62,123 nt of DNA from Escherichia coli (GCF_003334815.1 NZ_QOWO01000026.1), one strand, 5' to 3'; numbered from the stretch's first letter, positions 61,793-61,888 are shown. The notes: generated by a model from the sequence alone, not told the origin. Numbers and translations: made by a program.

Positions 61793-61858
61793 AGGGACAC
61801 AAAAAGTTTTCTCTCTTTCTCTCTCTTCTAGGACACTTGCTACTACTACTACAGGTAG

Positions 61859-61888
61859 CTCTAACTCTAACTCTAACTCTAACTCTAA
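61859..61888 (+). repeat. Hexanucleotide microsatellite (CTCTAA)x5
   Basis: ctctaactctaactctaactctaactctaa immediately after the 138-bp repeats. Confidence 0.9.

Follow-up and report, generated by a model that had tools for sequence, protein, structure and literature searches.

What are two perfect simple-sequence repeats, (CTA)x4 and (CTCTAA)x5, doing immediately downstream of a T7-type promoter in the chromosome of Escherichia coli? The repeats lie near the end of the window, by which we mean the whole 62,123-nt stretch analysed here (GCF_003334815.1, NZ_QOWO01000026.1), in the non-coding control module of a small integrative element at the tRNA gene glyU. Our answer is that this element is probably a satellite of T7-like virulent phages and that the tracts are polymorphic, probably dispensable microsatellites in its control module. 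A more detailed version, to which we would give an even chance, is that the window copy, reduced and disrupted by IS10, belongs to a so far undescribed family of mini-satellites, 4-6.5 kb in length, that exploit T7-like virulent phages (Autographiviridae). This family would be present in Enterobacterales and Pseudomonas, switched on by the polymerase of the helper, which probably also replicates it, and, in the full form, equipped with HK97-fold capsids of its own; the tracts would then be scars of replication.

By direct reading of the plus strand, (CTA)x4 (CTACTACTACTA) occupies positions 61840-61851 and (CTCTAA)x5 positions 61859-61888; Tandem Repeats Finder gives 61859-61889 for the hexamer (period 6, 5.2 copies, 100% matches, score 62), and five copies is the largest allele seen. 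The interval of 61841-61888 given in an earlier note on this DNA is accurate to within one base, the trinucleotide tract beginning one base earlier. A perfect 30-nt hexamer array in 62 kb is not a product of chance. Counted from the transcription start (+1) at 61787 of the second T7-type promoter, (CTA)x4 spans +54 to +65 and (CTCTAA)x5 spans +73 to +102, which confirms that both lie downstream of this promoter and inside its predicted leader. The (CTA)x4 tract belongs to a 138-bp unit that is duplicated in the window (first-unit copy at 61702-61713), and a 23-nt pyrimidine (CT) tract lies at 61807-61829 on the plus strand, with its first copy at 61669-61691. A predicted hairpin has this CT tract paired to the GA-rich 5' end of the transcript. 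Compared with basal alleles, whose longest run is 9-12 nt, the tract is expanded.

The locus is widespread enough for allelic comparison. The conserved block that follows the tracts was found in 201 of 5426 complete E. coli genomes, in every case in the chromosome, and in 9 metagenome contigs; it lies between glyU and the ETT2 secretion-system island, with natural flanks throughout. As the earlier note had expected of slippage-prone sequences, copy number is not invariant among isolates: CTCTAA is present in 5, 4, 3, 2, 1 or 0 copies and CTA in 1 to 4 among near-identical alleles. Within one haplotype with identical flanks there are five CTCTAA copies (the window and L037; relatives of the locus are referred to by L numbers), four (L001), three (L002, L003) or two (L046), a sister haplotype has a single CTCTAA beside CTTTAA (L004, L030, L033, L047), and basal alleles have none (L032, L034, L035, L036, L039). 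In complete E. coli genomes the whole 161-nt query was matched over 155, 149 or 143 nt of the record, and, depending on the allele, 54 to 115 nt separate the transcription start from the conserved block. The remaining tandem tracts of the module all vary among close relatives too: ATGACCATAGNCG is present in 1-3 copies, the promoter (P1) unit in 1-2, CTGTAYGGYC in 2-4 and ATCAATACGA in 1-3, and L047 has an extra duplication of a 10-nt CT unit. Since stepwise alleles occur at the same locus in independent complete genomes and metagenome contigs, an assembly artefact is an unlikely source of the tracts. Vectors carry the T7 promoter everywhere and assemblies are easily wrong at simple repeats, so that cloning-vector contamination or misassembly could in principle account for promoters and repeats together; given the natural flanks in all 201 genomes and 9 contigs, the non-T7-type promoters of elements in other genera and the lack of adjacent vector sequence, we consider this explanation extremely improbable.

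Because their copy number is polymorphic and basal alleles have none, we read the tracts as microsatellites produced by replication slippage in a leader spacer of variable length, and as probably dispensable to the locus. On their own such repeats are ordinary: neutral-looking, fast-mutating markers that could be used for strain typing of the locus. The earlier note had gone further and suggested that they could modulate expression, and a rival reading makes of them a contingency (phase-variation) switch, in which copy number tunes downstream genes via leader length or structure. Such a switch would suit the highly polymorphic copy number, the location in a predicted leader and repeat units that are all multiples of 3 nt. 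Yet many intact-looking relatives lack all three simple tracts—long CT run, (CTA)n and (CTCTAA)n—and have leaders of only 54-55 nt, the shortest seen, which speaks against a role in expression. Direct control of a downstream gene fares no better: in relatives the first gene is ~0.8 kb away, behind a second phage-type promoter of its own and a conserved structured leader that sequesters its ribosome-binding site. The predicted fold of the tract-bearing leader is no better than that of shuffled sequence (z -0.87) and leaves the CTCTAA tract unpaired, and an Rfam scan returned the tRNA as the sole RNA family. A coding role across the tracts was also considered and rejected: the two open reading frames (ORFs) that span them, one of 120 amino acids (aa) on the plus strand (61561-61923), which includes the promoter itself, and one of 52 aa on the minus strand, shift in frame, start and length between alleles, and the 10-nt duplication in L047 breaks the frame. 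We therefore regard the switch as improbable.

If the tracts are ordinary, the promoters beside them are less so. Two T7-type promoters lie on the plus strand of the window, P1a at 61632-61654 (TAATACGACTCACTATAGAGAGA, +1 at 61649) and P1b at 61770-61792 (TAATGCGACTCACTATAGAGAGA, +1 at 61787); a search for TAATACGACTCACTATAG with at most three mismatches finds just these two in the window, against 0.03 expected. Relative to the 23-bp consensus of T7 class III promoters (TAATACGACTCACTATAGGGAGA, -17 to +6), P1a differs at one position (+2 G>A) and P1b at two (-13 A>G and +2 G>A). T7 phi1.1A likewise starts with GAG. The exact 23-nt consensus is present in relatives L001, L002, L030, L033, L037 and others, and consensus or near-consensus T7 promoters occur at the locus in ~50 of the 5426 complete E. 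coli genomes. That there are two promoters in the window is due to a tandem duplication of the P1 unit at 61573-61855 (138 bp, 2.1 copies, 98% matches, Tandem Repeats Finder score 552); relatives have one unit or two. Some records list two places for the locus; since their match spans both promoter units, we would attribute the double listing to the tandem duplication and not to a second genomic copy. Duplication of the unit has happened more than once, with a repeat length of 138 bp in the window and 118 bp in L003 (9084-9291), and it is also seen in L046.

To which genetic unit do these promoters belong? The end of the window is the E. coli chromosomal stretch serA ... xdhABC - actS - glyU. 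The tRNA-Gly(CCC) gene glyU was placed by ARAGORN at 59677-59750 (plus strand), and its last 23 nt (TTCGATTCCCTTCGCCCGCTCCA, 59728-59750) form the attL core, an identical 23-mer recurring 4.1-5.6 kb downstream in L001-L004, L039 and L046. Downstream of attL comes an intact 548-aa ORF on the plus strand (59865-61511) for a tyrosine integrase (phrog_1 integrase, E 1.7e-45), which is 76% identical to Pectobacterium, 64% to Proteus and 35% to Pseudomonas integrases. In E. coli the element between the 23-bp repeats of the glyU 3' end measures 4.1-4.3 kb, or 5.3-5.6 kb where an IS3 is inserted, and its order is attL, integrase, a non-coding module of ~1 kb, a 187-aa KilA-N-like ORF, a 157-aa ORF and attR.

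Relatives of this element were found in E. coli, Citrobacter, Leclercia, Pectobacterium, Proteus and Pseudomonas, and homologues of the KilA-N-like protein in Serratia, Pectobacterium, Kluyvera, Pantoea, Erwinia, Proteus, Citrobacter, Enterobacter, Pseudomonas and others. The same gene content recurs in all 16 genome_contigs loci and in those retrieved via homologous proteins: loci with a readable upstream flank share the integrase, the KilA-N-like gene and two further proteins of 140-160 and 341-385 aa. A non-coding gap of 1-1.9 kb is common to one gene order; a second order exists. Where the ends can be defined, the full element measures 6255 bp in Proteus, 6327 bp in Pectobacterium, 6349 bp in a Logan contig and 6429, 6464 and 6552 bp in Pseudomonas. 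The Logan contig (L041) is 6388 nt long and has att cores at both ends, Pseudomonas elements are bounded by other direct repeats, and att repeats outside the tRNA-Gly type are 16-26 bp long. In all, the element has 4-7 ORFs, among which an integrase, a KilA-N-like protein and one HK97-fold protein are recognisable. It thus shows two general features of a satellite: an integrase and att sites of its own, and virion, replication and packaging genes that fall short of those of a phage. The E. coli type to which the window copy belongs, with intact examples in strains MB10 and 30COLEC, is a reduced derivative: it lacks the capsid protein and the 140-160-aa protein and has, in intact relatives, an unrelated 157-aa ORF instead.

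The promoters of these elements change with the host. Most loci of full architecture (integrase, long gap, KilA-N-like gene) have two copies of a 20-25-nt motif, 460-630 bp apart, that appears to be a promoter for a phage single-subunit polymerase, and by sequence matching its type tracks the T7-like phages of the host group. The T7-type promoter of the E. coli element matches mainly T7-group phages (140 Escherichia records). The Pectobacterium element has ATTAACGACTCACTATAAGAAGA, matched in Pectobacterium phages Q19, Jarilo and PcaP1EGY and best by the right-end, phiOR-equivalent promoter of Q19 (45 nt at 93%). The motif of the Pseudomonas element, TAAAAACCCTCACTAAGG..., is found in 75 Pseudomonas phages of ~40 kb at up to 10-11 sites per genome, that of the Proteus element (AATTAACCCACACTATAGGGAGA) in K11/KP32-like phages and Pectobacterium phage MA6, and that of the Citrobacter element (CTTAACTATCACTATAGGGAG) in the Dev2, SFPH2 and EP1 group, with the best match again near the right genome end. 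A full-size element in E. coli strain 219 (NZ_CP020514; L040 6795-7375) has K11-type, T7-type and K11-type promoters in tandem, along with a fourth variant, TAATTAGGTAGCACTATAGGGAGA; its K11-type sequence matched 371 Klebsiella phage records, and this mixture of specificities suggests that several types of helper are exploited. As the only recognisable promoters of the element thus appear to be of the type used by T7-like phages of its host group, it is most simply explained as a parasite or a sensor of those phages.

The non-coding module lies between the integrase and the KilA-N-like gene and runs, in relatives, from the P1 region through the variable spacer with the tracts to the conserved block, (C/T)TAAAG-type arrays, a hairpin, short repeats, the second promoter P2 and a leader. 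In the window, positions 61548-61572 (plus strand) hold the repeat ATGACCATAGTCG / ATGACCATATTG, which carries the T7 primase pentamer TGGTC on the minus strand and is present in 1-3 copies in relatives. The conserved unique block (CCGTAACTTATCGCATCCTTTCAGGGGCGGGATGACC...TACAGACACC...TCTCTACCCTACAGGGGCTTAACT) occupies 61889-62046 on the plus strand and runs on into the TAAAG arrays in relatives; a 41-nt core of it is identical in the window, L001-L004 and L030-L038, and the core CCTTTCAGGG(G)CGGGA..TACAGACACC is shared with the Proteus element. The hairpin, GGTGAT...ATCACC, is of a kind found downstream of T7 phiOR. P2 is class-II-like (CAATACGACTTACTAATAGGAGACAC, with the variant CAATACGACTTACTAATAGGAGA) and precedes a structured leader of ~100 nt directly 5' of the KilA-N-like gene, which is conserved in 17 of 18 aligned family members (L002 ~9880-9985; also L007, L009, L011 and L013-L027, alignment A2). 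This leader combines the motif AAGTCTTTCTGTTTGC with a long-range helix, has compensatory changes in 14 of its 20 predicted pairs and is predicted to pair the AAAGG of the ribosome-binding site with UCUUU. The leader belongs to no Rfam family; it could serve to lock translation or to direct processing of the RNase III type.

Does the module resemble a T7 replication origin? The earlier note had allowed that the tracts could be part of an origin-like AT/CT-rich region. For the tracts themselves the idea fails, since they are not AT-rich origin sequence, and for the surroundings it finds support: these combine tandem phage promoters with an excess of primase pentamers and with AT-rich TAAAG arrays. 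A T7 promoter is required by every T7 origin, the primary origin being the phi1.1A/phi1.1B pair and phiOR a secondary one (PMC8373140), and the tandem promoter pairs of the element resemble that primary pair. The T7 primase pentamers GGGTC, TGGTC and GTGTC number 16-25 in the E. coli module against ~4 expected, a 4-6-fold excess reached by 0 of 2000 shuffles, and plus-strand TAAAG numbers 8-10 against 1.6-1.7 expected, compared with 17 against 1.5 and 8 against 1.0 at the ends of T7 and 5 against 0.9 in phage Q19. Over 95 nt, the arrays are 70.5% identical to the AT-rich region that follows T7 phiOL. The E. coli module thus does look origin-like in the T7 sense, so far as sequence can tell, although in the window the AT-rich TAAAG region is cut off from the tandem promoters by an IS10. 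Because TAAAG enrichment, significant in E. coli only and marginal in Proteus and one Pseudomonas element, is absent from most other genera, the resemblance to T7 genome ends is clear in E. coli only, and the arrays are ruled out as a feature of the whole family.

These shared arrays bring in another rival for the tracts, in which (CTCTAA)n would correspond in function to the short repeats (CCTAAAG and related) flanking the terminal repeat of T7, and act in concatemer processing or packaging. The T7 terminal repeat ends ...GTCTCTCTGTGTCCCT, directly followed by ATCTGTTACAGTCTCCTAAAGTATCCTCCTAAAG...CCTCCTAACG, and the window reads ...TTTCTCTCTTTCTCTCTCTTCT...CTACAGGTAGCTCTAACTCTAAC...CTCTAACCG; the order is alike in both, with a CT-rich run, TACAG and CTAA-type repeats, and TAAAG arrays are enriched in the element and at T7 ends alike. 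To our knowledge, the function of the T7 short repeats has not been established. We nevertheless consider this rival unlikely, if somewhat less so than the switch. Intact-looking relatives have no CTCTAA copy or a single one, the hexamers are contiguous and lack the 5-8-nt spacers of T7, and the tract is absent from elements of other genera. The corresponding 19-mer does occur in 58 viral contigs, which are unrelated; none has a T7-group promoter nearby or the conserved block, so (CTCTAA)n is rejected as a general phage feature.

If the E. coli elements are reduced, what do full elements carry? Those of 6.3-6.5 kb encode a protein of 341-385 aa (L007 7832-8986; L009 7507-8604; L011 7581-8606; L040 9240-10367) for which no sequence match was found in Pfam, PHROG, PADLOC or PDB and whose family is rare (48 representatives in 1.84 billion proteins). 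An AlphaFold2 model built from a 31-sequence alignment reached a mean pLDDT of 80.8, and a Foldseek comparison with viral models returned 171 hits (E<=0.001), of which 50 were listed; nearly all of these that bear a name are capsid or head proteins. On the strength of the model, we identify it as a predicted HK97-fold capsid protein. Its 140-160-aa neighbour, in some copies assigned to DUF6971, is charged and looks helical in the C-terminal half; conceivably, it could be a scaffold. No PHROG or Pfam match to portal, terminase or connector genes was found in full elements, nor was a protease detectable, and RNA polymerase, DNA polymerase and tail genes were likewise not found. For the small proteins in general, PHROGs, PADLOC, NCBIfam and Pfam gave no useful known family beyond the integrase and the KilA-N-like protein (phrog_129). 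The tight range of full-element sizes, 6255-6552 bp in L007, L009, L010, L011, L016, L026 and L041, suggests a constraint on packaging size. Six copies of the full element would approximate one T7-like genome of 38-39 kb.

Taken together, these features can be assembled into a life cycle for a satellite of T7-like phages. In an uninfected cell the element would be silent, a proposal that goes with the absence of any detectable sigma-70-like promoter in the module part of the window (61400-62123). Upon infection by a T7-group phage, the single-subunit RNA polymerase of the phage would recognise P1 and P2, and the resulting transcripts would express the KilA-N-like protein and, in full elements, also the putative scaffold and the capsid protein. 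Since a phage promoter is an essential part of every T7 origin, the same transcripts would also prime replication by the phage replisome, as they do at T7 origins, and phage-driven replication would let the element escape the degradation of host DNA. A comparable problem is solved by PLE satellites (bioRxiv 10.1101/671271). Amplified DNA would then be packaged with the portal, terminase and tail of the helper, in full elements into capsids made of their own protein and in the reduced E. coli type maybe into helper capsids as concatemers. Tandem promoters of different specificity, copied from phages of the host group, would allow the use of several helpers, and the tandem tracts, (CTA)n and (CTCTAA)n included, would be by-products or scars of a helper-driven replication of the module that is error-prone and recombination-prone.

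Several observations weigh against a T7-phage satellite and have to be set beside this scheme. Transcription by the phage polymerase, phage-driven replication, excision, packaging and transfer are all deduced; the integrase lies upstream of the phage promoters, which leaves infection-triggered excision without an explanation; the E. coli type of the window has no capsid gene; and many copies carry IS3 or IS10 insertions, so that part of the population is decaying. Furthermore, no relative of the KilA-N-like protein turned up in IMG/VR viral contigs, the predicted promoters of the window are off consensus (+2A in both, -13G in the second), and TAAAG is not enriched in most Pseudomonas modules or in those of Pectobacterium, Citrobacter and Leclercia. 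Beyond the promoters, comparison with phage concatemer junctions revealed no extended similarity: a blastn search for a T7 terminal repeat or pac site (word size 7, against reconstructed T7 and Q19 junctions) returned promoters and low-identity AT-rich matches, a result with which functional mimicry in the absence of sequence identity would be compatible. Homology of the module as such to phage genomes was accordingly rejected, the promoters alone matching.

Some of these points would equally fit a locus that is no transmissible satellite at all, being either the decayed remnant of an integrated T7-like phage or a defence or decoy island that senses infection through phage promoters and responds by abortive infection or interference. 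Phage-specific promoters suit an infection sensor just as well, insertion sequences have disrupted many copies, a capsid gene is missing from the E. coli type, a DUF4145 protein or, in Pseudomonas, a 176-aa protein lies between integrase and P1 in some copies, and in L007 Kiwa genes lie just outside attR. A phage remnant is, on the other hand, hard to reconcile with a compact, conserved, att-bounded architecture of 6.25-6.55 kb across Enterobacterales and Pseudomonas, with the lack of genes for RNA polymerase, DNA polymerase, portal, terminase and tail, and with a capsid protein that belongs to a rare family of its own. Pure defence would not account for the retention of integrase, att sites and capsid gene, and PADLOC matches are weak and partial (E 1e-4 to 2.5e-3), with no credible system among them. 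We consider this family of explanations rather unlikely, though the most plausible of the alternatives weighed here. Note that satellites usually interfere with their helper as well, so that interference and satellite status can coexist.

A satellite of T7-like phages thus remains our preferred reading of the family; what of the copy in the window? At 62047-62123 (plus strand) the element is interrupted by the end of an IS10/Tn10-type insertion sequence (CTGATGAATCCCCTAATGATTTT...), which breaks it just before the TAAAG arrays and reaches the window end, the remainder of the element falling outside the window; relatives read ...GGGGCTTAACT|TAAAG across the junction. We take this end sequence to be IS10, and the terminal 77 nt are matched in >3000 plasmids. 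This end is preceded by 9 bp, GGCTTAACT, that are similar to the consensus target of IS10, NGCTNAGCN. Because its promoters are non-consensus and the IS10 lies between P1 and the rest of the module, the window copy is probably inactive, that is, probably a disabled member of the family.

Other features of the element and its surroundings are worth recording. IS3-family insertions lie in the integrase or after the KilA-N-like gene in L001, L004, L039 and L047. In its N-terminal half, the integrase frame of the window contains a coding 12-nt tandem repeat, CCAGAAGTAAAA, at 60405-60460 (4.7 copies, 95% matches, score 105). Between integrase and P1 there is a variable cargo slot, occupied by a DUF4145 protein in two E. 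coli elements (L039 6201-6830; L040 6155-6787), by the 176-aa protein in Pseudomonas (L011 4800-5330) and by an opposite-strand Bro-N protein in the Logan contig (L041 1680-1961); these genes could be accessory or defence genes. The Kiwa genes, KwaA and KwaB, lie just beyond attR of the Pectobacterium element (L007 10436-12040). The neighbours of the element in E. coli are a GH15 gene and the ETT2 type III secretion island; stacked islands make the glyU site a hotspot.

Few phages are as well studied as T7, on which the most widely used expression system is built, and we know of no natural satellite of T7 that has been described. In the literature searched, which is incomplete and leaves prior publication possible, we found neither satellites of T7-like phages nor chromosomal T7 promoters at glyU described. 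Judged from sequence comparison, the locus makes a strong candidate for a new family of satellites tied to T7-like phages. If this is true, a parasite or a defence geared to the polymerase of the phage itself would be a kind of interaction new to the T7-like group, and promoter capture would be a new and simple activation logic for satellites. The locus would also bear on phage therapy with T7-like phages of E. coli, Klebsiella, Pseudomonas and Pectobacterium, and, for biotechnology, it means that wild strains may carry chromosomal T7 promoters.

How does the locus compare with systems already known? With bacterial simple-sequence contingency loci, the tracts share the stepwise copy-number polymorphism of a short tandem repeat between isolates. 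Unlike in those loci, the repeat lies outside a coding frame and a promoter spacer and directly controls no gene; it is polymorphic in a non-coding leader ~0.8 kb before the next gene, with spanning ORFs that are not conserved, and membership in this class was rejected. With the short repeats and origins of T7 (phi1.1A/1.1B, phiOL, phiOR), the element has in common primase sites, plus-strand arrays of TAAAG-type heptamers and tandem phage promoters with AT-rich DNA after them; unlike the T7 short repeats, the CTCTAA hexamers are contiguous, confined to one lineage and probably dispensable, and the similarity outside the promoters is compositional, ~70% at best.

Among phage satellites, cf-PICIs such as EcCI2 come with a complete module for head formation and packaging and borrow only the tails of temperate helpers (bioRxiv 10.1101/2022.09.08.507074). 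The 6.3-6.5-kb elements, in contrast, carry a capsid protein and one possible scaffold, with no detectable portal, protease or terminase, and are apparently driven by virulent T7-like phages through phage-polymerase promoters; lacking a complete capsid and packaging module, they do not belong to the cf-PICIs. PICMIs (PMC10803314) resemble them in being very small integrative satellites with reduced gene sets and virulent helpers. As described there, PICMIs are found in Vibrionaceae and have no capsid-remodelling genes, and the abstract makes no mention of a phage-polymerase promoter logic; on that description they stand apart from elements that reside in Enterobacterales and Pseudomonas, use other gene families and carry, in the full form, a putative HK97-fold capsid protein. 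Hosts and capsid gene thus exclude membership in the PICMIs, a class marked also by packaging as a concatemer. The proteins that redirect capsid size in other satellites, SaPIbov5 Ccm, P4 Sid and PLE TcaP, have no sequence relationship to the protein of the element.

The closest parallel comes from engineering. Phagemids equipped with a T7 origin, pac site and terminal repeat are replicated and packaged by T7 and transduced (PMC13236587, PMC9860248), with gp18 binding PacB and gp19 cutting PacC (PMC9860248); on the evidence of this literature, DNA with little more than T7 origin, pac and terminal-repeat signals can in principle ride T7. As they are cited in those two papers, the engineered T7 phagemids and transducing plasmids of Chung & Hinkle (1990) have no replication or packaging proteins of their own and rely on packaging signals and a T7 promoter-based origin. 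The E. coli element likewise has T7 promoters (in tandem in some copies), excess primase sites, AT-rich arrays like those of T7 ends and no replication genes. Unlike the phagemids, it is natural, chromosomal and att-bounded, has its own integrase and yielded no copy of the T7 terminal repeat or pac site. By analogy, the engineered T7 phagemid would be the closest functional counterpart of this integrative element, whose promoters appear to be set to the T7-like phages of its host.

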